Assembly: GCA_964591795.1 (NCBI GenBank)
Contig: CAZQEL010000015.1
Location: 1 to 22,365 of the forward strand
Direction: 5' to 3'
DNA length: 22,365 nucleotides
Source: an uncultured archaeon
Lineage (GTDB): Archaea > Iainarchaeota > Iainarchaeia > Iainarchaeales > CSSED10-239
A program made the translations under genes and the position numbers. This document shows, piece after piece, positions 6,116-22,365 of this stretch. The notes under the pieces were generated by a model. That model saw only the letters and a program-made list of their open reading frames with translations, had not been told where the DNA came from and did no database searches. Every line of letters begins with the position of its first letter. The first letter of the stretch is position 1.

Positions 6116-8044
6116 ATGAATAAATTTAAAGTAGTATCAAAGTTTTCTCCAGCAGGAGATCAACCTAAAGCAATTAAAGAGCTATCAGACGGTTTAGCTA
6201 AAAAAAATAAACTTCAAACACTCTTAGGTATAACAGCTTCGGGAAAAACATATGTTGTAAGTAAAATAATCGAAAATCATCAAAAACCAACTCTTGTTCT
6301 TGCACATAACAAAACATTAGCTGCTCAATTATATAGAGAGCTTAAGGAATTCTTTCCAAATAACAAAGTTGAATACTTTGTTTCATATTATGATTATTAT
6401 CAACCAGAAAGTTATGTTCCTCAAAGAGATCTTTATATTGAAAAAAACACAAAAATTAATGAAAAGATAGAAGAGCTAAGGCTTTCAGCAACAGCATCAA
6501 TTGCCTCAAGAGAAGACACTATTGTTGTTGCTTCTGTTTCATGTATTTATTCTTTAGGAAATCCAGAAAAATTCAAAGAAATGGGTTTTGAATTGTTTGT
6601 TGGACAAAAAATTACAAGACAAGAACTTTTAGAAAAATTAGTTAACATCCAATATCAAAGAAACGATATTGAACTCTCTCAAGGTAGATTTAGAGTTAAA
6701 GGATATGTTATTGATTTAATCTTAGGGTATGCTCAAAGTGTAATTAGAATAGAACTTTTTGGAAGCAGTATTGAAAGCATAACTGAAATAGATAAAATAA
6801 CAACAGAAGTTATTTCAAAAACAAAAGAAATATTTATTTTTCCTGCAAAACACTTTGTAATTGATGAAGAATCAAAACTTAAGGCATTAGAATCTATTGA
6901 AAAAGAACTAAATGACGTTTTACCTACAATGGATGTGCTTGAAGCACAAAGACTTAAGCAAAGAACAATGTATGACTTGGAAATGATAAGGGAAGCTGGT
7001 TATTGCTCAGGTATTGAAAACTATTCAAGGCATTTTGATGGTCGTAAGGCAGGAGAAAGAGCATACACTCTAATTGATTATTTCCCAAAGGACTTTTTGC
7101 TTGTTATTGATGAAAGTCACCAAACAATACCTCAACTAAACGCAATGTATAAGGGTGATTTTTCAAGAAAGAAAAATTTAATAGATTATGGTTTCCGTCT
7201 TCCTTCAGCATATGACAATAGACCTTTAAAATTTAAAGAGTTTGAAAAAAATTTCATGAACAAAGTAATATTTGTGTCAGCTACTCCTGGTGATTATGAA
7301 AAATCTAAATCTGCACAAATTTCAGAGCTTATTATAAGACCAACTGGCTTAATTGATCCACCTATTGAGATACATAAAGCAGAAGGACAAATTAAACATT
7401 TAATTGAAAATATTAATGAAACTATAAAAAAAGGATTTAGAGTACTTGTAACAACTTTAACAAAAAAACTAGCAGAAGAAATATCAGAGTATTTTGCTGA
7501 ACAAAATATAAAAACTAGATATCTACATTCAGAGATTAATACTCTTGAAAGAACAGAAATAATAAGAGAGCTTCGTTTAGGTAAGTTTGATTGTTTAGTT
7601 GGAATTAATCTTTTGCGTGAAGGACTTGATATTCCAGAGGTTGGTTTAATTGGTATATTAGACGCTGATAAGGAAGGTTTTTTAAGAGACCAAAGAAGCT
7701 TAATCCAGATAATTGGAAGGGCTGCTAGAAACAAAGACTCAAAAGTTATTCTTTATGCAGATAGAATGACAGACTCTATTAAAAAAGCAATTTCTGAAAC
7801 AGATAGAAGAAGAACAATTCAGGTAGCATACAACAAAAAACATAATATTACACCTAAGACCATTATTAAATCTATTCAAGAAAAAGAAACTGAAATTACT
7901 GATCTTAAACATATACCAAAGAAAGATATTAAGAAAATGATAATTGAAATTGAAAAAGAAATGAGAAAAGCATCAGACAATCTTGATTTTGAAAAAGCTA
8001 TTTTGTTACGGGATAAGCTTAATATGCTTAAGACAAAAAGATAA
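6116..8044 (+). CDS. uvrB: excinuclease ABC subunit B
   Basis: N-terminal [14 protein letters not shown]. Walker [14 protein letters not shown] box (VIDESHQT). Helicase motifs VSATPGDYE and [10 protein letters not shown]-terminal UVR domain ([16 protein letters not shown]). 642 aa. Confidence 0.95.
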
Positions 8045-8046
8045 TT

Positions 8047-8727
8047 TTATTTATCTTTAACAAAATTAAAATCCTTATTAAGTTTATAACCTTCTTCAGG
8101 AGTAAAATAAACTTCAAACTTGTATTTTTCTAAAAGTTTATAAAAATCAATCTTATAATTATCTCTTCTTTTAGTTATTTTTTCTTTATTAAACAACATA
8201 TGTGTGAAAATTCTAGTAAATTGATTCTTAGCACCTCTAAGTGATACCTTTTCCTTTACCATATACTCATTTATCTTCTTTTGAATGTTTTTCATAAATA
8301 CAGGATTTATTTTAATAGTAGTATACCCTAAAACCTTACCTTTTGGATTAACAACTCCAATTACTTCATAACCATGTTTTGTTTTAGGATAGTTAAAAAT
8401 AGAATCAATAAATGTATTTAGATTAGGAATTGCGCTTCCACTACTAACTATTTTATTTGCTTTTGGGTTAAATACTGCTGTGTGAAAGAAAGTTCCCTTT
8501 TCTTTAAGTTTTAGTTTTTTAGTATTTATTTCATTAAAAAGTTTATCATACCTTTCAAAGTTAACTGGTTTATAAGTTTTATTTTTGTCTTTTGTAACAT
8601 TAACTATTCTTTCACCAGGATGTTTATAAAAAGAAGATTCAGTTTTATTTGTTTCTTTTAAAACTTTTTCAAACTTATTTTTTCCAATTTTTGATTTTGG
8701 AATGATTTTTGGTTTTAGTTTAGGCAT
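8047..8727 (-). CDS. hypothetical basic protein; shares an N-terminal motif with 13292..13984
   Basis: 226-aa ORF convergent with uvrB, with a 2-nt spacer. KPKIIPKSKIGKNKF compares with KPKLIRKSSIVKNKI in the ORF at 13292. Confidence 0.5.
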   Translation of the reverse strand: MPKLKPKIIPKSKIGKNKFEKVLKETNKTESSFYKHPGERIVNVTKDKNKTYKPVNFERYDKLFNEINTKKLKLKEKGTFFHTAVFNPKANKIVSSGSAIPNLNTFIDSIFNYPKTKHGYEVIGVVNPKGKVLGYTTIKINPVFMKNIQKKINEYMVKEKVSLRGAKNQFTRIFTHMLFNKEKITKRRDNYKIDFYKLLEKYKFEVYFTPEEGYKLNKDFNFVKDK

Positions 8728-8897
8728 GTTTTATCTTTTTCTTCTCTTTTATAAATATATATTTATATAATGTTAATTTAAACATAACTTTTACCCTATA
8801 CATAATAACTTTGGAAATCTAACGCTTCTTTTTTTAAAGCTGTTGTTCTACATTAACTATAACAATCTTAATTTTTTTAAAAAAGAGGCTTTTTAAC

Positions 8898-9494
8898 ATG
8901 CTAGAAAAATATACTGTATTAGATTTAGAAACAACAGGGCTTAATAGAGAAAAAGATCAAATTACTGAAATAGCTGCTTTAAAGCTTGAAGGGAACAGAA
9001 TAGTTGCTAAATTTGAAACATTAGTTAACCCAAAAATAAAAATTCCTGCTGAAATAACTCAACTAACAGGAATTACTAATAGTATGGTAAAAGATATGCC
9101 TACAATTGATCAAGTTTTACCTAATTTTTTAAGTTTTATTAAAGATGATATTTTAGTTGCACATAACGCTATTTTTGATATTGGTTTTTTAAATGTTAAT
9201 TTTTCAAAGCATTTTCAAAATTCATTACCTAATAAGAACATTTGCACAATGAATCTTGCAAGAAAAATAGTGCCTACAATACCAAGTTATAGACTTTCTT
9301 CTTTATGTAATTATTTTGATATAAAAAACGATTGTGCACATAGAGCAATGTCAGATGTTTATGCAACAACAAAACTTTTTACTAAATTTCAAGCAATTAT
9401 GCATAATAATGGGCTTAAGAAAGATCAAGCAATTTTAGATTTTTATAAAGATCCATTGGCAAAACTTAATCTTTCACTAAATCATTTGATTTAG
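8898..9494 (+). CDS. DEDDh 3'-5' exonuclease (DnaQ / Pol III epsilon-like)
   Basis: ExoI VLDLETTGL, ExoII LVAHNAIFDIGFL and ExoIII HRAMSDVYAT (H-x4-D). AGAGG lies upstream of the ATG. Confidence 0.85.
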   Translation: MLEKYTVLDLETTGLNREKDQITEIAALKLEGNRIVAKFETLVNPKIKIPAEITQLTGITNSMVKDMPTIDQVLPNFLSFIKDDILVAHNAIFDIGFLNVNFSKHFQNSLPNKNICTMNLARKIVPTIPSYRLSSLCNYFDIKNDCAHRAMSDVYATTKLFTKFQAIMHNNGLKKDQAILDFYKDPLAKLNLSLNHLI

Positions 9495-9822: not shown

Positions 9823-10758
9823 ATGGAATATACAAAAGATTTTTTATGGAAAAAAGGCCTTACAGTATCAGAATTGGTTGAGGGTTTTGGAAATATTGGG
9901 TTTCAATCATACGAACTTAAAAGAGCATCAGATCTTTTAGTTAAAATGAAAAAAGAAGGTGCTAAAGTATATCTTTCATATACTTCAAATATGGTTACTT
10001 CAGGTCTACGTGGTTTTTTTGCTCAAGTAATTGATAAAAAAATGTGTGATGTTATAGTTACAACTGTTGGTGCTATTGAAGAAGATATTATGAAAGCTGA
10101 TGGAGATAAATTTATTCTTTCTTCCTTTTCTTCAAATGATGAAGAGCTTTATGAAAGAGGAGAGAATCGAGTTGGTAATATATTAATTACAAATGATCAA
10201 TATCAAAAATTTGAAGCAAAAATGCAAGTAATTTTAAAAGATATTTATACAACTAAGAAATCATTAACAATTTCTGAACTATTAAGAGAAATTGGTTTAA
10301 GAATAAATGATACTAATTCAATTCTTTATCAAGCAGCAAAAAACAATATCCCTATCTTTTGCCCTGCAATAACAGATGGTTCATTTGGTTTCCATTTATA
10401 TTTATTTAAGGACGAACATAAGGATTTTAACATTGATATAATTAATGATTTTAAAAATATTATTTTTTCAACATCACATGATGAAAAAAAAGGAATTATT
10501 GCACTTGGTGGTGGAGTTTCAAAGCATCATGTAATATTAACTACATTAATTAATGGTGGAGCTGATTATGCTCTTTATATGACAACAGCATCTCCTCGTT
10601 CAGGAAGTCTTTCTGGAGCAACAACTGATGAAGCTAAGTCTTGGGGGAAAATAAAAAATAATTCTGATGCTGTTACTGTTATAGGTGATGTAACCATAAC
10701 TTTTCCAATAGCTATGGTTTCTGCACTAGATACTTTAGAAAAAGAAGGATTAATTTAA
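9823..10758 (+). CDS. dys: deoxyhypusine synthase
   Basis: 311 aa. It has the GGGVSKHH motif and the catalytic-lysine motif EAKSWGKI near the C-terminus. Length and motif order are typical of archaeal DHS. Confidence 0.9.
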   Translation: MEYTKDFLWKKGLTVSELVEGFGNIGFQSYELKRASDLLVKMKKEGAKVYLSYTSNMVTSGLRGFFAQVIDKKMCDVIVTTVGAIEEDIMKADGDKFILSSFSSNDEELYERGENRVGNILITNDQYQKFEAKMQVILKDIYTTKKSLTISELLREIGLRINDTNSILYQAAKNNIPIFCPAITDGSFGFHLYLFKDEHKDFNIDIINDFKNIIFSTSHDEKKGIIALGGGVSKHHVILTTLINGGADYALYMTTASPRSGSLSGATTDEAKSWGKIKNNSDAVTVIGDVTITFPIAMVSALDTLEKEGLI

Positions 10759-11127
10759 ATGATTAAAAAAAGTGTTAATTTAATTAAAAATAAACTATTA
10801 AAAGCAAATATATTTAAAAAAAAAGTAAATGTTTATTCTAAATTAAATAAAAGATATAAAGAAAAAGTAAAACTAGCTTATTTTTCAGAAATGCCATCTA
10901 AGAAAAAAATAACTGGCTTATTATTAGAAAACAAATTAGTTGTTTTTTTAAATTCTAATAAAGAATCAATAATTGGTAATTCTAAGTATATGTCCTTTCA
11001 GGCTTTTATTTTTAAAAAAGAAATAAATTTCACTAAAATTCAATTTAATGGGAATTTAAAAAATTCACTTAGAAATATTTTTGAAATAAAATTATTTAAT
11101 GATTTTTTAGTTAATTTTTCAAAATAA
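10759..11127 (+). CDS. hypothetical protein
   Basis: The start abuts the dys stop (TAAATG). 122 aa, Lys/Asn-rich, with no known motif. The TAA at 11125-11127 is followed by open frame into 11194..11379. Confidence 0.4.
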   Translation: MIKKSVNLIKNKLLKANIFKKKVNVYSKLNKRYKEKVKLAYFSEMPSKKKITGLLLENKLVVFLNSNKESIIGNSKYMSFQAFIFKKEINFTKIQFNGNLKNSLRNIFEIKLFNDFLVNFSK

Positions 11128-11193: not shown

Positions 11194-11379
11194 ATGGGTG
11201 GTTTTAAAGCATCTGATGTAAATAAACTTATAAAATATCATGAAGCACTTAAGACTAATGATGTTAAAAAAGTATTATCTTTTGATTTTAGTAAAAATAG
11301 ATTAAATTGTTTGACAAATAATGGTGAAAATATTAATTTAAATATTGAATTACCTTGTTATGTTTTAAAAGTTAAGTGA
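11194..11379 (+). CDS. hypothetical small protein
   Basis: 61 aa, in the same frame as 10759..11127. Its TGA stop lies inside the GTGAT that precedes the decarboxylase start. Confidence 0.35.
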   Translation: MGGFKASDVNKLIKYHEALKTNDVKKVLSFDFSKNRLNCLTNNGENINLNIELPCYVLKVK

Positions 11380-11384
11380 TATTT

Positions 11385-12431
11385 ATGAAATCAAATGCAA
11401 AATTTATATTTTCTAAAAAAATAATTTTAAAAGAATATAAAAAAATACAAGATGTTTCAGATATTGTTTCATATAGTGTTAAATCAAATCCATATATTGT
11501 TGGTATTTTAGAAAATAACACTACTTGTAAATTTTTAATACATCACATAAATGAAATGTCTAAAATTAAAAATAAGAAAAATGTATGGTATATGTTACAT
11601 TCTCCTGATAAAGAAGAGATTGAATTACTTTTTAAAGAAGGTATAAATAAATTTATTATTGATAATAAAAACGATTTTAATTTTTTACTTAATGAAATAG
11701 AAAAAAATAATTATAAAATAACTTTACTTTTAAGAATGAGACTTAAGGAATATACAGTTGTTACTGGTAAGTATTTTGTATATGGATTTTATTCAAAAGA
11801 AGTTAATGAGCTTATTAGTGTATTGAAAAATAATCCTTTAATTGAAAATAAAGGTATTCATTTTCATAGGAAAACACAAAATTTATCTGAATGGAACTTA
11901 ATTTCTGAAATTGAATCATCTTTAACAAAAGAAACTTTAGATTTGATTGGTTTGTTGGACATTGGTGGTGGTTTACCGGTTGTTTATAAAAATATAAATC
12001 CAAGAACTTTAGATGTTATTTATAAAAAAATAACAGAGCTTAAACAATTTTTAAATAATAAGAATATAAAATTAATTACTGAACCTGGTAGAAGTATTGC
12101 TGCACCTTCAGGTAAACTTGTTACAACTATTAAAAATATTGTTGATGATACAATATTTATTGATGCTTCTTTATTTAATTGTTCAATGGATACATTAGTT
12201 GCACATATTAAACTTTTAGTTGAAGGAGAAAATGATGTTGATATTGGTAAACCATATACTATTAAGGGATTAACTCCTGCTTCAGAAGATATTTTTAGAT
12301 ATAGGGTTTATTTTAAAGAAGGTTACATTCCTAAAATTGGTGATAATATCATTTTTAATAATGCTGGAGCCTATATTTATTATACTGATCTTTTTAACTT
12401 AGAAAGACCAAAAATTGAATTTGTTGATTAG
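11385..12431 (+). CDS. PLP-dependent decarboxylase, Orn/DAP/Arg decarboxylase family (fold type III)
   Basis: PLP-lysine motif SYSVKSNP, HFHRKTQN (HxGSq-like), LDIGGGLPV, ITEPGRSI and NNAGAYIYY...FN. ATG at 11385, with GTGAT 4 nt upstream, is preferred over the listed GTG at 11376. Substrate cannot be assigned from sequence. Confidence 0.8.
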   Translation: MKSNAKFIFSKKIILKEYKKIQDVSDIVSYSVKSNPYIVGILENNTTCKFLIHHINEMSKIKNKKNVWYMLHSPDKEEIELLFKEGINKFIIDNKNDFNFLLNEIEKNNYKITLLLRMRLKEYTVVTGKYFVYGFYSKEVNELISVLKNNPLIENKGIHFHRKTQNLSEWNLISEIESSLTKETLDLIGLLDIGGGLPVVYKNINPRTLDVIYKKITELKQFLNNKNIKLITEPGRSIAAPSGKLVTTIKNIVDDTIFIDASLFNCSMDTLVAHIKLLVEGENDVDIGKPYTIKGLTPASEDIFRYRVYFKEGYIPKIGDNIIFNNAGAYIYYTDLFNLERPKIEFVD

Positions 12432-12433
12432 AT

Positions 12434-13270
12434 ATGGATATTAAAAAACCCTTAAAAATAATTTTAAAATCAAAAGAAAAAGATTCAACTATAGTTAAAC
12501 CATTTTCCTTAAATAAAAAATCTGTTAATTATAAGCAAAAAATGGTTCTTTATAGTCCAGAAATAAAAAAATTATTTAAATCAATAACAGGTATGGGTAA
12601 AAATACTTCGCCAGACTATGTTCCTGGTGCAATGGTGGTTATTCATAAACATCTAAATTCTTCAGATAAATTTTCTTTAAAATACACAGATCCTAAAGGA
12701 AGATTTGTAATAAATTCAGTTTCAATTAATACTATGTTACCTTCTAATATACATAAAGCTTACAAGTTAGATATTTTTGAAAATAATAAAACCTATTCTT
12801 TTTATATTAAGGCAATTTTTGAAAATACTGAATTTAAACAATCCACACAGAAAATTATTATACAAAAGTTTATGGAAAAAAAAGGTTTTAATGTTATAAG
12901 ACCTAAATTTGCATTTTCAGAAGTTAATACTGAAGTTATGGATTTAAGGCTTATTGAAAGTAAAAAATGTGGTTTTCATTTTATTGTTTATGATTATACA
13001 AACCTAAAAAATGTTTATGATTCTTATTTGTTAAAAGAAATAACTTCAAAAGACTATATAGCAATTTCAAAAAAGTTAGATTTAATTAAAATAAGTTTTT
13101 CTAATGAACAAATAAGAGATATTGTTTCAAAAAATGTGTATTATGAAAAAATAAAAAATAAATTTAATTCATTTAATATTTATAAGTTATTTATTTCTGA
13201 TTTATATTTAATTGATTTAGATAAAAAAATATTAGCTGAATTTGCAAAAAAAGAAGATTTAGTTAAATAA
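12434..13270 (+). CDS. hypothetical protein, paralogue of 13292..13984
   Basis: Several collinear matched blocks with the next ORF, including FIVYDYTNLKNVYD versus YICYEYKNLPNVFE. The start is 2 nt after the decarboxylase stop. Confidence 0.55.
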   Translation: MDIKKPLKIILKSKEKDSTIVKPFSLNKKSVNYKQKMVLYSPEIKKLFKSITGMGKNTSPDYVPGAMVVIHKHLNSSDKFSLKYTDPKGRFVINSVSINTMLPSNIHKAYKLDIFENNKTYSFYIKAIFENTEFKQSTQKIIIQKFMEKKGFNVIRPKFAFSEVNTEVMDLRLIESKKCGFHFIVYDYTNLKNVYDSYLLKEITSKDYIAISKKLDLIKISFSNEQIRDIVSKNVYYEKIKNKFNSFNIYKLFISDLYLIDLDKKILAEFAKKEDLVK

Positions 13271-13291
13271 ATTTATTAATAGGAAATATTT

Positions 13292-13984
13292 ATGGTTATT
13301 AGAAAATTTAAATTAATTAATAAGTCAAAGGTTAATAAACCTAAATTAATTAGAAAAAGCAGTATTGTAAAGAATAAAATTTCTCGAGATCTAATTTATT
13401 CTAAACAAATTAGGGCAGCCTTTAGAAAATTACCTGGCCTTTTAAGTGCCTTTAAAGAATTAAAGGTAAATCCAAGATTAAATGTTATCAAAGATCCTAA
13501 TAGAAAATTTGATATTGTAAGATATAAAAATTTTTTAAAGAAAGAGGTTAATTTTTATGGCGAAAATACAAAAAGTTCATTTATTTTATCTTTATATTTA
13601 GTAAAAGGAAAACCAAAAAGATACTATGTTAAGGAAGCACCACATAATACTGAACTTTCATCAGTTTTAGAGTTTATTAGTATGTCTGTTTTAAATAAAT
13701 TAAATATAAATATAATAAAACCTGTTTTTGCATATGATTCTATTGCTAAAAAAAATAGTTATATTTGTTATGAATATAAAAATCTTCCAAATGTTTTTGA
13801 AGCATTATCTAAACATTTAATTAGTTTAGAAGAATTTAATGCTATTGAAACAAAAATTTCGTATTTTAGAAATCATCTTAATAAGTATGGAATTAAGGAT
13901 TTTGCATCAATTAATGCATTAATTAATGTTAAAACTAAGAAACTTTATATGTTAGATACCTTTATTAAAGAAGTTAAACACTAA
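13292..13984 (+). CDS. hypothetical protein, paralogue of 12434..13270; possible kinase-like motif order
   Basis: AGGA lies 7 nt upstream of the ATG. The motif order YYVKE...NTEL...IIKPVFAY...YICYEY...GIKDFASINALIN...LYMLDTF resembles the Lys / alphaC-Glu / hinge / catalytic-loop / DFG-like order of small RIO- or Bud32-type kinases. This is unverified. Confidence 0.55.
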   Translation: MVIRKFKLINKSKVNKPKLIRKSSIVKNKISRDLIYSKQIRAAFRKLPGLLSAFKELKVNPRLNVIKDPNRKFDIVRYKNFLKKEVNFYGENTKSSFILSLYLVKGKPKRYYVKEAPHNTELSSVLEFISMSVLNKLNINIIKPVFAYDSIAKKNSYICYEYKNLPNVFEALSKHLISLEEFNAIETKISYFRNHLNKYGIKDFASINALINVKTKKLYMLDTFIKEVKH

Positions 13985-14037: not shown

Positions 14038-14922
14038 ATGATCAAAATTAATTACTTAAACTTAAACGAAGAATATTCTTTTAAGGAAAACTCACAAATA
14101 CATATTTATCCTTTGTCTTTTAAACAGAAAGCTACCACTAAAAATTCATCTTTTAATGGACCTGAAGAAATTTTAAAAGCTTCAAGAGAAATTGAATATT
14201 TTGATGAGGAATTTAAAATTGAACCATATTTAAATGGAATTTATACTCATGAGATAATTAATTTAAAAAATAAAGATGAAGGATTTATTTTATCTGAAAA
14301 AATTATTAATAAATTAAAACCTTTAGTTGAAAAAAATAAATTAAATATTTTTCTTGGAAGTGATCATTGGACTACACATGGAATTGTTTCTGTTTTTGAA
14401 AAACAATATAAAGATTTTGGAGTAATATCTTTTGATGCTCATCTTGATTTAAGAGAAGAGTGGGGAAAAGGTACTTGGTGGCATGCATGTGTTTTAAGAG
14501 AAATTTCTAAAAAGCATAAGTGTCTTATTTTAGGTTCTAGAAGTTCTGATTTTTATGAGAATGAATATCTTAAGTCAAATAACAGTGTATCTGTAATTTC
14601 CTCAAGAGAAATAAATAGGAAAAAAAGTTTAACACATTTCAAATATTTTTTAAAAAAACTACCTAAAAATATTTATATTACTATAGATTCAGATGTTTTT
14701 GATCCGTCTATTATTAGAAATACTGATACTCCTGAACCTAACGGGCTTTCATGGATACAAGTTAATGCGTTTTTAAAAGAAATTTTTAAAACTAAAAACG
14801 TTATTGGGGTAGATTTAGTTGAATTTTCGCCAAAAGGTCCTGAATGGAATTATCACAGTGAAGCTTATACTTTGGCTAAATTAATTTATAAAATTATTAG
14901 TTATAAATTTAATGTTAAATGA
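14038..14922 (+). CDS. speB: agmatinase / arginase-family ureohydrolase
   Basis: The Mn-ligand motifs are all present: GSDHW (GGDHS-like), FDAHLDLR, ITIDSDVFDP, TPEPNGLS and GVDLVEFSP. Confidence 0.85.
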   Translation: MIKINYLNLNEEYSFKENSQIHIYPLSFKQKATTKNSSFNGPEEILKASREIEYFDEEFKIEPYLNGIYTHEIINLKNKDEGFILSEKIINKLKPLVEKNKLNIFLGSDHWTTHGIVSVFEKQYKDFGVISFDAHLDLREEWGKGTWWHACVLREISKKHKCLILGSRSSDFYENEYLKSNNSVSVISSREINRKKSLTHFKYFLKKLPKNIYITIDSDVFDPSIIRNTDTPEPNGLSWIQVNAFLKEIFKTKNVIGVDLVEFSPKGPEWNYHSEAYTLAKLIYKIISYKFNVK

Positions 14923-19049: not shown

Positions 19050-19050
19050 G

Positions 19051-19122
19051 TGCACCCGTCGGGATTCGAACCCGAGTCCCAAGCTTGGAAGGCTCAAATA
19101 CTAACCACTATACTACGAGTGC
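19051..19122 (-). tRNA. tRNA-Gly(TCC): tRNA-Gly (anticodon TCC)
   Basis: Hand-folded cloverleaf. Acceptor GCACTCG/CGGGTGC, D stem GTAT/GTAT, anticodon stem TGAGC/GCTTG, loop CTTCCAA, T arm TCGGG-TTCGAAT-CCCGA, discriminator A. 72 nt, no encoded CCA, no intron. Confidence 0.9.
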
Positions 19123-20798: not shown

Positions 20799-20872
20799 GC
20801 TCTTGTGGTGTAGTCCGGTAATCATTCTGGCCTTTCAAGCCAGAGACTCGGGTTCGAATCCCGGCGAGAGCA
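20799..20872 (+). tRNA. tRNA-Glu(TTC): tRNA-Glu (anticodon TTC)
   Basis: Hand-folded. Acceptor GCTCTTG/CGAGAGC, the GTGTAGTCCGGTAATCAT D arm typical of archaeal tRNA-Glu, anticodon stem CTGGC/GCCAG, loop CTTTCAA, T arm TCGGG-TTCGAAT-CCCGG, discriminator A. 74 nt, no CCA, no intron. Confidence 0.9.
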
Positions 20873-21863: not shown

Positions 21864-22365
21864 ATTCCAGCTGATCCTGCTGGTGGGTACTGCTATTGGA
21901 ATCTGACTAAGACATGCAAGTCTAAAAGTCTCAGCTATGAGAGATTTTGGCGAACGGCTCAGTAACACGTGGTCAATCTACCCTTTTGAAGAGTTAAACT
22001 CGGAAAACTGAGTATAATGCTCTATAGAAAAGTAAATCTGGAATGATTACTATTCTAAAGGTTAAAGGTTCATGCATCTTTAACGCGAAAGGATGAGACT
22101 GCGCCAGATTAGGTAGTTGGTAGGGTAACTGCCTACCAAGCCGAAGATCTGTACGGGCCTTGAGAGAGGGAGCCCGGAGAAGGGAACTGAGATAATGTCC
22201 CTAGCCCTACGGGGTGCAGCAGTTACGAAACTTTTACAATGCGGGAAACCGTGATAAAGAGATTCCAAGTGCTTACTATGTAAGCTTTTATATAGTGTGA
22301 AAAACTATGTGAATAAGAGGAGGGCAATATACGTGCCAGCCGCCGCGGTAATACGTAATCCTCAA
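21864..22365 (+). rRNA. rrs: 16S rRNA, 5' ~500 nt (runs off the window end), archaeal type
   Basis: ATTCCAGCTGATCCTGCTGG...ACTGCTATTGGAATCTGACTAAGACATGCAAGTC, CCCTACGGGGTGCAGCAGTTACGAAA and GTGCCAGCCGCCGCGGTAATAC match archaeal 16S landmarks in the correct order and spacing. Confidence 0.95.

Follow-up and report, generated by a model that had tools for sequence, protein, structure and literature searches.

An arginine decarboxylase (ADC), an enzyme of the deoxyhypusine synthase (DHS)/SpeY type and a ureohydrolase form an established three-gene module in bacteria, haloarchaea and DPANN archaea (PMC13625781, PMC5178350, PMC10407285). SpeY couples two agmatines into bis(guanidino)homospermidine, which the ureohydrolase turns into homospermidine (PMC13625781); in haloarchaea, an essential agmatinase-like gene clusters with those for DHS and aIF5A and is implicated in deoxyhypusine formation (PMC5178350); and clusters of the ADC-DHS/SpeY-ureohydrolase kind have been described in DPANN (PMC10407285). 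The published accounts of these clusters mention no kinase-like gene (PMC13625781, PMC10407285, PMC5178350), and in PMC13625781 the word "kinase" has 0 occurrences. Here, we describe a 22,365-nucleotide (nt) contig of an uncultured iainarchaeon (CAZQEL010000015.1, assembly GCA_964591795.1; the window), in which the genes for a putative ADC, DHS and agmatinase lie in one strand-consistent cluster and two further open reading frames, ORF A and ORF B, are lodged between the decarboxylase and the agmatinase. The pair belongs to a previously undescribed orphan gene family, in no domain database, whose members probably contain a minimal kinase-like domain; in contrast to the described module, clusters of this kind carry one to three such putative kinase-like genes between decarboxylase and ureohydrolase. 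The components of the cluster, with lengths in amino acids (aa) and isoelectric points (pI), are:

12,434-13,270, + strand: ORF A, 278 aa, pI 9.6 (ORF list)
13,292-13,984, + strand: ORF B, 230 aa, pI 10.1 (ORF list)
9823-10,758, + strand: deoxyhypusine synthase/SpeY-type enzyme, head of the cluster (PF01916, E=3e-101)
11,376-12,431, + strand: short alanine-racemase-fold decarboxylase of pyridoxal-phosphate fold type III, upstream partner (PF02784, E=4e-10)
14,038-14,922, + strand: agmatinase-type ureohydrolase, downstream partner (PF00491, E=4e-43; TIGR01230, E=2.5e-44)

Small kinases that work through partners are familiar. Bud32, a minimal kinase whose C-lobe is reduced, acts on a partner enzyme in the manner of an ATPase switch; RIO kinases are atypical, have no activation loop and act as ATPases in ribosome maturation. 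Are ORF A and ORF B relatives of such proteins, and does their place among polyamine-type genes reveal what they do?

An orphan family with a conserved kinase-type signature

An exhaustive HMMER search of 1.84 billion protein representatives returned 31 proteins, one of them a false positive, and among 5.8 billion proteins word-indexed homolog searches recovered nothing beyond the queries and one relative, even with a five-sequence profile. All members are annotated as hypothetical proteins or left unnamed. Every named source (Candidatus (Ca.) ainarchaeum sp., a Diapherotrites archaeon, Ca. Forterrea multitransposorum and Ca. Iainarchaeum) belongs to the Iainarchaeota/Diapherotrites, and the family is, as far as is visible, restricted to Iainarchaeota (DPANN). 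Searches with PADLOC and PHROGs revealed no defense or phage relationship, and neither a scan of a genome collection with the decarboxylase nor two scans of viral contigs returned anything.

With the false positive set aside, the proteins are 146-318 aa long and very basic (pI 9.5-10.2), with a Lys-rich N-terminal tail, a family-specific N-terminal region of ~70-95 aa and a core of ~160 aa. They have diverged widely: when 30 family sequences are aligned, identity averages 23% per column, K114 (ORF B numbering) is the only invariant non-Met column and only E127, P144, I158, Y160, D203, N208 and D222 are conserved at ≥90%. Five of these eight best-conserved non-Met columns are canonical catalytic residues; of 34 sequences compared, all 34 have K114, 33 have E127, 30 have D203, 32 have N208 and 32 have D222. 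In ORF B they are spaced K-13-E-76-D-5-N-14-D; the corresponding figures are 24/67/5/11 in Methanocaldococcus jannaschii Bud32 and 19/75/5/13 in protein kinase A. The putative hinge reads YDY in ORF A and YEY in ORF B, and the chains end 5-31 residues after the last, DFG-type Asp. The catalytic Asp is replaced by Glu or Asn in four members (L008_Kb, L010_Ka, P0013 and P0019) but not in the window.

Candidate catalytic residues of ORF A and ORF B

An earlier note on this DNA, made from its letters alone, had described two divergent paralogs with a kinase-like order of motifs. Both ORFs are present exactly as it gave them, on the + strand between decarboxylase and agmatinase and downstream of DHS, and their homology is borne out by BLASTP (E=2e-7, 27% identity over 113 aa). 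Four of the five collinear blocks on which the comparison had been built are recovered by MAFFT (YSPEIKKLFKSITG/YSKQIRAAFRKLPG, FYIK/YYVK, FNVIRPKFAF/INIIKPVFAY and FIVYDYTNLKNV/YICYEYKNLPNV), whereas the fifth, LYLIDLD/LYMLDTF, is off by four residues: the family alignment pairs KLFISD256LY of ORF A with KLYMLD222TF of ORF B. The candidate catalytic residues fall at the following positions:

12,809-12,811, + strand: ORF A K126 (FYIK), candidate ATP-anchoring β3 Lys (column invariant, 34/34)
12,851-12,853, + strand: ORF A K140, at the αC Glu column (Glu in the other 33 of 34 members)
13,118-13,135, + strand: ORF A D229-x4-N234 (IRDIVSKN), candidate catalytic loop (family alignment)
13,199-13,201, + strand: ORF A D256 (KLFISDLY), candidate metal-binding DFG-type Asp (family alignment)
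13,631-13,633, + strand: ORF B K114 (YYVK), candidate β3 Lys (family alignment)
13,670-13,672, + strand: ORF B E127 (VLEF), candidate αC Glu (paired by hhalign with the αC Glu of Bud32 and RIO)
13,898-13,915, + strand: ORF B D203-x4-N208 (KDFASIN), candidate catalytic loop (family alignment, hhalign)
13,955-13,957, + strand: ORF B D222 (LYMLDTF), candidate DFG-type Asp (family alignment, hhalign)

A Lys thus occupies the β3-type position in all 34 sequences (K126 in ORF A, K114 in ORF B), and both ORFs carry a D-x4-N followed by the candidate metal-binding Asp. Is the first copy nevertheless a pseudo-enzyme, as had been proposed from the apparent loss of its D..N block? That loss was a misalignment: IRD229IVSKN234 of ORF A pairs with IKD203FASIN208 of ORF B, so ORF A keeps D229, N234 and D256 and is without the αC Glu only. 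ORF B keeps the full catalytic set. Its motif order is non-random and conserved in the family, although the αC Glu had been sought in the wrong place, in NTE; the conserved Glu is E127 of VLEF. ORF A is laid out as a basic N-terminal tail, an N-terminal region peculiar to the family that carries the clade motif TGMGKNTSPDYVPGAM, the kinase-like core and a C-terminal FAKKEDLVK tail, whereas ORF B has no C-terminal tail and ends 8 residues past its DFG-type Asp.

The two genes are anciently diverged rather than recent copies. In a rough neighbor-joining tree, ORF A belongs to a clade placed directly after the decarboxylase and ORF B to another deep clade, together with P0017 and K3 of the related locus L001. 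Because they fall in different deep clades, the recent tandem duplication that the earlier note had implied is rejected; each of the two is at least as close to distant members of the family as to the other. The post-decarboxylase clade (residues 52-67 of ORF A; P0003-P0007) has an extra conserved motif, TG(I/M)GK(K/N)xSxDY(I/V)PGAM, which in P0004 and P0006 reads GIGKKG, resembling GxGxxG. At ~70 residues before the conserved Lys, the motif is too distant to be a canonical glycine-rich loop; at the same position the other clades have (K/R)ENPGLL, and the GxGKxxS of the ORF A clade is not present there.

Evidence for and against a kinase-like fold

The family consensus matches the Pfam model for Kdo/WaaP kinases (PF06293) with E=3.9e-5 (23.6 bits, where the gathering score is 21.3; alignment to positions 29-166 of the 207-position profile), and its only NCBIfam match is the Kdo kinase KdkA (NF002475, E=2e-5). 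Three of 30 members match the Kdo model singly (best E=0.007), and the reversed consensus, a control, matches nothing. Comparisons by hhalign with Bud32 (P=0.0024 over 101 columns; reversed-template control, P=0.29) and RIO (P=0.0092 over 99 columns; control, P=0.81), for which templates were built from sequences in the PDB search output and Rio1 genes of related loci, both place the Glu, the D-x4-N and the final Asp in register. A Bud32 hidden Markov model (HMM) run over 194 kb of related loci ranked family members right after true Rio1, at non-significant E values of 0.36-0.49. Conservation of the K/E/D-x4-N/D set, the Kdo/KdkA matches and the weak but in-register hhalign alignments make a minimal kinase-like domain of the Kdo/Bud32/RIO type, which the earlier note had suspected, the best-supported reading, and we consider this assignment of the family probable.

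Each of the three kinase groups has its own points of contact with the family. Kdo/WaaP is the only known family that the consensus matched in Pfam and NCBIfam, DUF6382 aside; it is similarly small and has the same order of Lys, Glu, hinge, D-x4-N and Asp. Unlike Kdo/WaaP, the family is archaeal, stands in no lipopolysaccharide context, has its own N-terminal region and ends 5-31 aa past the Asp. Bud32 shares the register of Glu, D-x4-N and Asp, and one family clade adjoins the gene for Cgi121, the KEOPS subunit that binds Bud32; yet the family has neither the GAEA-type P-loop of Bud32 nor its HxDLTxSN/IDFGL signature nor its basic RxxR C-terminal tail, and ORF A and ORF B themselves are not beside KEOPS genes. 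RIO kinases align in the same register (P=0.0092), and in two Iainarchaeota genomes a pseudogenized family member lies ~1.3 kb from an aIF1A-Rio1-KH cluster. Unlike RIO, family members lack the STGKEA loop, the N-terminal RIO helix/winged helix, the flexible loop and the region after the DFG Asp; moreover, genuine Rio1 genes coexist with them and match PDB Rio1 with E=1e-39. The second-best match of the consensus, PF19909 (DUF6382; E=2e-4), extends from the hinge as far as the C-terminus and is found by three of 30 members, including P0015 (best E=6e-5).

Several results weigh against a kinase-like fold. Taken alone, ORF A and ORF B have no usable match in Pfam, NCBIfam or PDB sequences; PDB-sequence profile searches with five- and 30-sequence profiles and with the consensus found no kinase (the best matches, a fatty-acid-binding protein and a designed helical protein, were judged spurious); and neither WaaP nor WaaY of E. 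coli, each used as a single sequence, gave a significant hhalign match. The hhalign probabilities for Bud32 and RIO are low (4-12%), and these two kinases find each other at P=1e-10 while the family finds either at only 1e-2 to 1e-3; the family is therefore far more remote from both than they are from one another. Within 30 residues upstream of the Lys, the family alignment has no conserved Gly-rich motif, and ORF A is alone among the 34 sequences in having a Lys at the αC Glu column. AlphaFold2 models built from a three-sequence alignment are not confident structures (pLDDT, the predicted local distance difference test score, 37 and 33), and a Foldseek search with the low-confidence ORF B model returned noise, with no match at E≤0.001. 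The order of secondary-structure elements in the models fits β2-β3-αC ... αD-αE-loop-β7-β8; since the models are poor, no conclusion about the fold is drawn from them, and the fold is one that we infer.

Might these motifs, then, be coincidences in a Lys/Asn/Asp-rich low-complexity proteome, and might the proteins have a different fold altogether, with a structural or nucleic-acid-binding role suited to their basic character? The absence of a confident model, of significant matches for the single ORFs and of a Gly-rich loop, the 4-12% hhalign probabilities and a K-to-E spacing of 13, below that of typical kinases, would all fit. It is hard to see, however, why five catalytic residues would then be among the eight best-conserved columns of a family with 23% mean identity, why two independent HMM libraries would return a Kdo-type kinase as their best or sole match to the consensus and nothing for its reversal, and why two independent templates would fall into the same catalytic register with clean reversed controls. 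We regard a non-kinase fold as improbable.

A polyamine-type operon as the main home of the family

If single members say little, what do their neighbors say? Family members adjoin a decarboxylase or agmatinase gene in 11 distinct related loci, the window and ten others, arranged as follows:

L001: decarboxylase, three family members, agmatinase; neighbors 75-95% identical to those of the window
L006: a single copy, overlapping the decarboxylase gene with its start and the agmatinase gene with its stop
L008: decarboxylase, family member, DEAD-box helicase, family member, 199-aa ORF, agmatinase
L009 (Ca. ainarchaeum): synteny with the whole window from RNase_T to FEN1, plus FtsZ upstream; one copy
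L010: two family copies, then agmatinase
L011/L012: decarboxylase, family member, helicase, 195-aa ORF, agmatinase
L023: three family copies, then agmatinase
L024: DHS, stop-interrupted family member, decarboxylase, family member, agmatinase
L025 and L026/27: family member adjoining agmatinase

A decarboxylase gene stands immediately upstream of a family member in seven loci (L001, L006, L008, L009, L011/L012, L024 and L025), agmatinase follows family members in L001, L006, L009, L010, L023, L024, L025 and L026/27, and DHS is in the equivalent position in L001, L006, L008, L009, L011 and L024. Junctions are tight: in the window, the start codon of ORF A is 2 nt past the decarboxylase stop, AGGA lies 9 nt upstream of the ORF B ATG and AGGA or AGGTG stands shortly upstream of ORF B and agmatinase, while in L006 and L008 stop and start codons overlap. 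At least 13 of ~20 representatives with known context reside in the DHS/decarboxylase/agmatinase cluster, and these operon-resident members share only ~25-30% identity; linkage that holds across such divergence marks the operon as the main home of the family. The earlier note had reckoned with homologs scattered away from polyamine or hypusine genes; linkage to dys/speB-type genes instead holds in 11 distinct loci.

Other members live elsewhere. The clade next to Cgi121 (P0012, P0026 and P0020, <50% identical to one another) lies 10-15 nt downstream of that gene in eight contigs (copies at 935-1687 in L013, 1121-1873 in L014, 6001-6729 in L017 and 2547-3371 in L020; also in L018, L019, L021 and L022), in a setting bounded by ribosomal protein S8e on one side and an XPF/Hef nuclease-helicase pair on the other. 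These archaea could have a cryptic Bud32 in this clade; in hhalign its distance from Bud32 was not measurably smaller than that of the remaining clades, and per-clade comparisons with Bud32 and RIO had too little power. One clade overlaps the start of a thymidine kinase gene, one copy follows the gene for histidyl-tRNA synthetase (HisRS), and one, in L007, sits beside three methyltransferase-like paralogs. In Ca. Forterrea multitransposorum and a metagenome-assembled genome of Ca. Iainarchaeum, the copy is broken into two to three frames (L004, 7881-8695; L005, 7911-8688), either as a pseudogene or through assembly error, and lies between a presenilin-like membrane protein and an aIF2β-aIF1A-Rio1-KH cluster.

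The family also evolves quickly. Between the window and L001, amino acid identity is 95% for DHS, 94% for UvrB, 91% for RNase_T, 78% for the decarboxylase (90% over its last 180 residues, which are free of sequencing gaps) and 75% for agmatinase, compared with 61% for ORF A and its L001 K2 ortholog and 29% for ORF B and K3. The ratio of nonsynonymous to synonymous substitution rates (dN/dS) is 0.06-0.17 for the neighbors, 0.27 for agmatinase and 0.44 for ORF A, which means that ORF A is under purifying selection but constrained far less than the neighboring enzymes.

Several observations weigh against a tie to the pathway. Evolution faster than that of the adjacent enzymes fits an accessory function and not one at its core; copy number varies from one to three per polyamine-type locus; copies in L004, L005 and L024 are interrupted by stops; other clades have non-polyamine neighbors (Cgi121, thymidine kinase, aIF2β/aIF1A/Rio1, HisRS, methyltransferase-like genes); and the agmatine/DHS/ureohydrolase chemistry requires no ATP (PMC13625781). 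A kinase-like family unrelated to polyamines would account for them, namely a lineage-specific Bud32/RIO-like expansion serving translation or signaling, for which the operon is a permissive, well-expressed insertion site inherited by descent. This account draws on the same non-polyamine neighbors, on the unrelated genes that the operon takes in (an AbiEi/AbiEii pair, a DEAD-box helicase with a 195-199 aa ORF, a 221-aa ORF), on different clades filling one slot in one to three copies, on the dN/dS of 0.44 against 0.06-0.27 and on a pathway that needs no ATP. It sits poorly with the presence of at least 13 of the ~20 placed representatives in the cluster at ~25-30% identity and with tight or overlapping junctions to decarboxylase and agmatinase, a retention unusual for a passenger gene. 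On balance we find it unlikely.

A proposed role in agmatine-dependent chemistry

We lean toward the view that ORF A and ORF B are anciently diverged minimal enzymes or switches of the Bud32/RIO/Kdo-like, ATP-binding kind, tied to agmatine-dependent DHS chemistry. The ~160-aa core would be a stripped-down protein-kinase-like domain, closest to the atypical kinases Kdo/WaaP, Bud32 and RIO. Its predicted N-lobe would supply the ATP-anchoring Lys (K126 in ORF A, K114 in ORF B) and the αC Glu (E127 in ORF B; K140 stands there in ORF A), followed by the predicted YDY/YEY hinge, the D-x4-N catalytic loop and a Mg-binding Asp (D256 in ORF A, D222 in ORF B). Since the chain stops 5-31 residues past this Asp, there is no activation segment and there are no substrate-binding C-lobe subdomains. 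Both copies may bind Mg-ATP and hydrolyze it or transfer its γ-phosphate; with no lobe for binding a substrate, they would most likely resemble Bud32 and RIO in their mode of action, serving as ATPase switches or as kinases that need a protein or RNA partner in the same complex, not as free-standing substrate kinases. The operon home, with its tight or overlapping junctions, suggests that this partner or substrate is to be sought in the agmatine-dependent DHS pathway, whose output would be deoxyhypusine on aIF5A and/or homospermidine. ORF A would be the copy of the post-decarboxylase clade, and ORF B an accessory copy from another clade.

Could the substrate instead be agmatine itself, or a nucleic acid? 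TiaS activates its substrate, C34 of tRNA-Ile2, by phosphorylation for attack by agmatine. An ATP-dependent enzyme of agmatine metabolism, either an agmatine/guanidino-polyamine kinase or a TiaS-like activating enzyme, would agree with the closest models, Kdo kinase and WaaP, being small-molecule or sugar kinases, with a gene immediately downstream of, and apparently co-translated with, the agmatine-producing decarboxylase, and with a basic, Lys-rich tail (pI 9.5-10.2) compatible with RNA binding; AUA-rich coding at 23% guanine plus cytosine (GC) would make agmatidine formation important. We nevertheless hold it to be highly improbable: nothing past the DFG-type Asp could serve as a substrate-binding subdomain, there is no similarity to TiaS or another PDB entry, the catalytic Asp is Glu or Asn in L008_Kb, L010_Ka, P0013 and P0019, and multi-copy, fast-evolving genes are atypical of a housekeeping modification enzyme.

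A bolder reading is a long shot. The family would be an unrecognized ATP-dependent component of agmatine chemistry, either gating, as an ATPase switch in the style of Bud32, the DHS-mediated deoxyhypusination of aIF5A (or the synthesis of homospermidine) or serving as a TiaS-like activating kinase, with agmatine attached to a protein or tRNA and its guanidino group trimmed by the downstream ureohydrolase; the Cgi121-linked clade would then be the cryptic Bud32.

Other features of the window and related loci

The decarboxylase is unusually short, at 351 aa, or 348 aa from the ATG at 11,385 that is its likely true start. Its NCBIfam matches are to lysA/nspC/speA-type models, all below cut-off, with lysA the best and far below; it is called an arginine decarboxylase from gene context alone. 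It also differs from the decarboxylase reported for the Diapherotrites module (PMC10407285), being a short alanine-racemase-fold enzyme and not the pyruvoyl SpeDA.

Outside the pair, the window contains the following features:

8898-9494, + strand: RNase_T-type exonuclease (ORF and Pfam/NCBIfam search)
10,759-11,127 and 11,194-11,379, + strand: two short ORFs between DHS and the decarboxylase (ORF list)
8047-8727, - strand: basic 226-aa conserved hypothetical protein
19,050-19,122, - strand, and 20,799-20,872, + strand: tRNA-Gly(TCC) and tRNA-Glu(TTC)
21,864-22,365, + strand: 5' 487 nt of an archaeal 16S rRNA, usable for placing the organism

FEN1, UvrB and other archaeal genes are also present. 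GC content is 22-26% in most 1-kb bins (overall range, 16.5-29.4%). The window holds no extra or degenerate family copies (orf122, orf61 and the 226-aa ORF are non-members), and a search around the pair for DNA repeats and mobile-element boundaries returned only AT-rich noise. The two short ORFs jointly match one intact, equally placed 221-aa ORF of Ca. ainarchaeum (L009, 6182-6847): 101 aa of the first align with it at 44% identity and 61 aa of the second at 28%, so the window gene looks split by a frameshift or sequencing error; it has no family match and is outside the kinase-like family. The N-terminus of the 226-aa protein, MPKLKPKIIPKSK, resembles those of the family (M..IKKPKI..KSK). 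This protein has orthologs in L001 (92% identity) and L009 (32%). It matches no known family, and the HMM of the kinase-like family does not pick it up; the similar N-termini may reflect a common basic tail or AT-rich codon bias.

The operon is a hot-spot for insertions across related loci. L006 carries an AbiEi-like/AbiEii toxin-antitoxin pair (7291-8858; PF08843, E=4e-21) between DHS and the decarboxylase, L024 has the stop-interrupted kinase-like copy in that place (1045-1857), and a DEAD-box helicase and a conserved, Cys-containing ORF of 195-199 aa precede agmatinase in L008 (3938-7003) and L011 (3978-5903). In L007, the weakly methyltransferase-like paralogs are three tandem ORFs of ~145-258 aa (657-2678, - strand; PF13489, E=0.04), arranged head-to-head with the family member. 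On the same strand as that member and ~2.6 kb downstream of it, a 307-aa ORF ends in GGSCHCLTNE, a motif typical of guanidino-group-modifying enzymes.

Implications

Were the kinase reading wrong, what remains would still be a clean definition of an orphan, fast-evolving, lineage-specific family. If it is right, these proteins would be among the smallest kinase-like domains known, ~160 residues that end just past the metal-binding Asp. The Cgi121-linked clade hints at duplication of KEOPS-type ATPase switches and their recruitment into further modification pathways. With the family mostly inside the ADC/agmatinase/DHS operon, the pathway probably has an undescribed ATP-using partner, and a conserved component of this kind would be added to a module described as three enzymes only. 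It would also offer a handle on the control of aIF5A modification or homospermidine synthesis in genome-reduced DPANN archaea.

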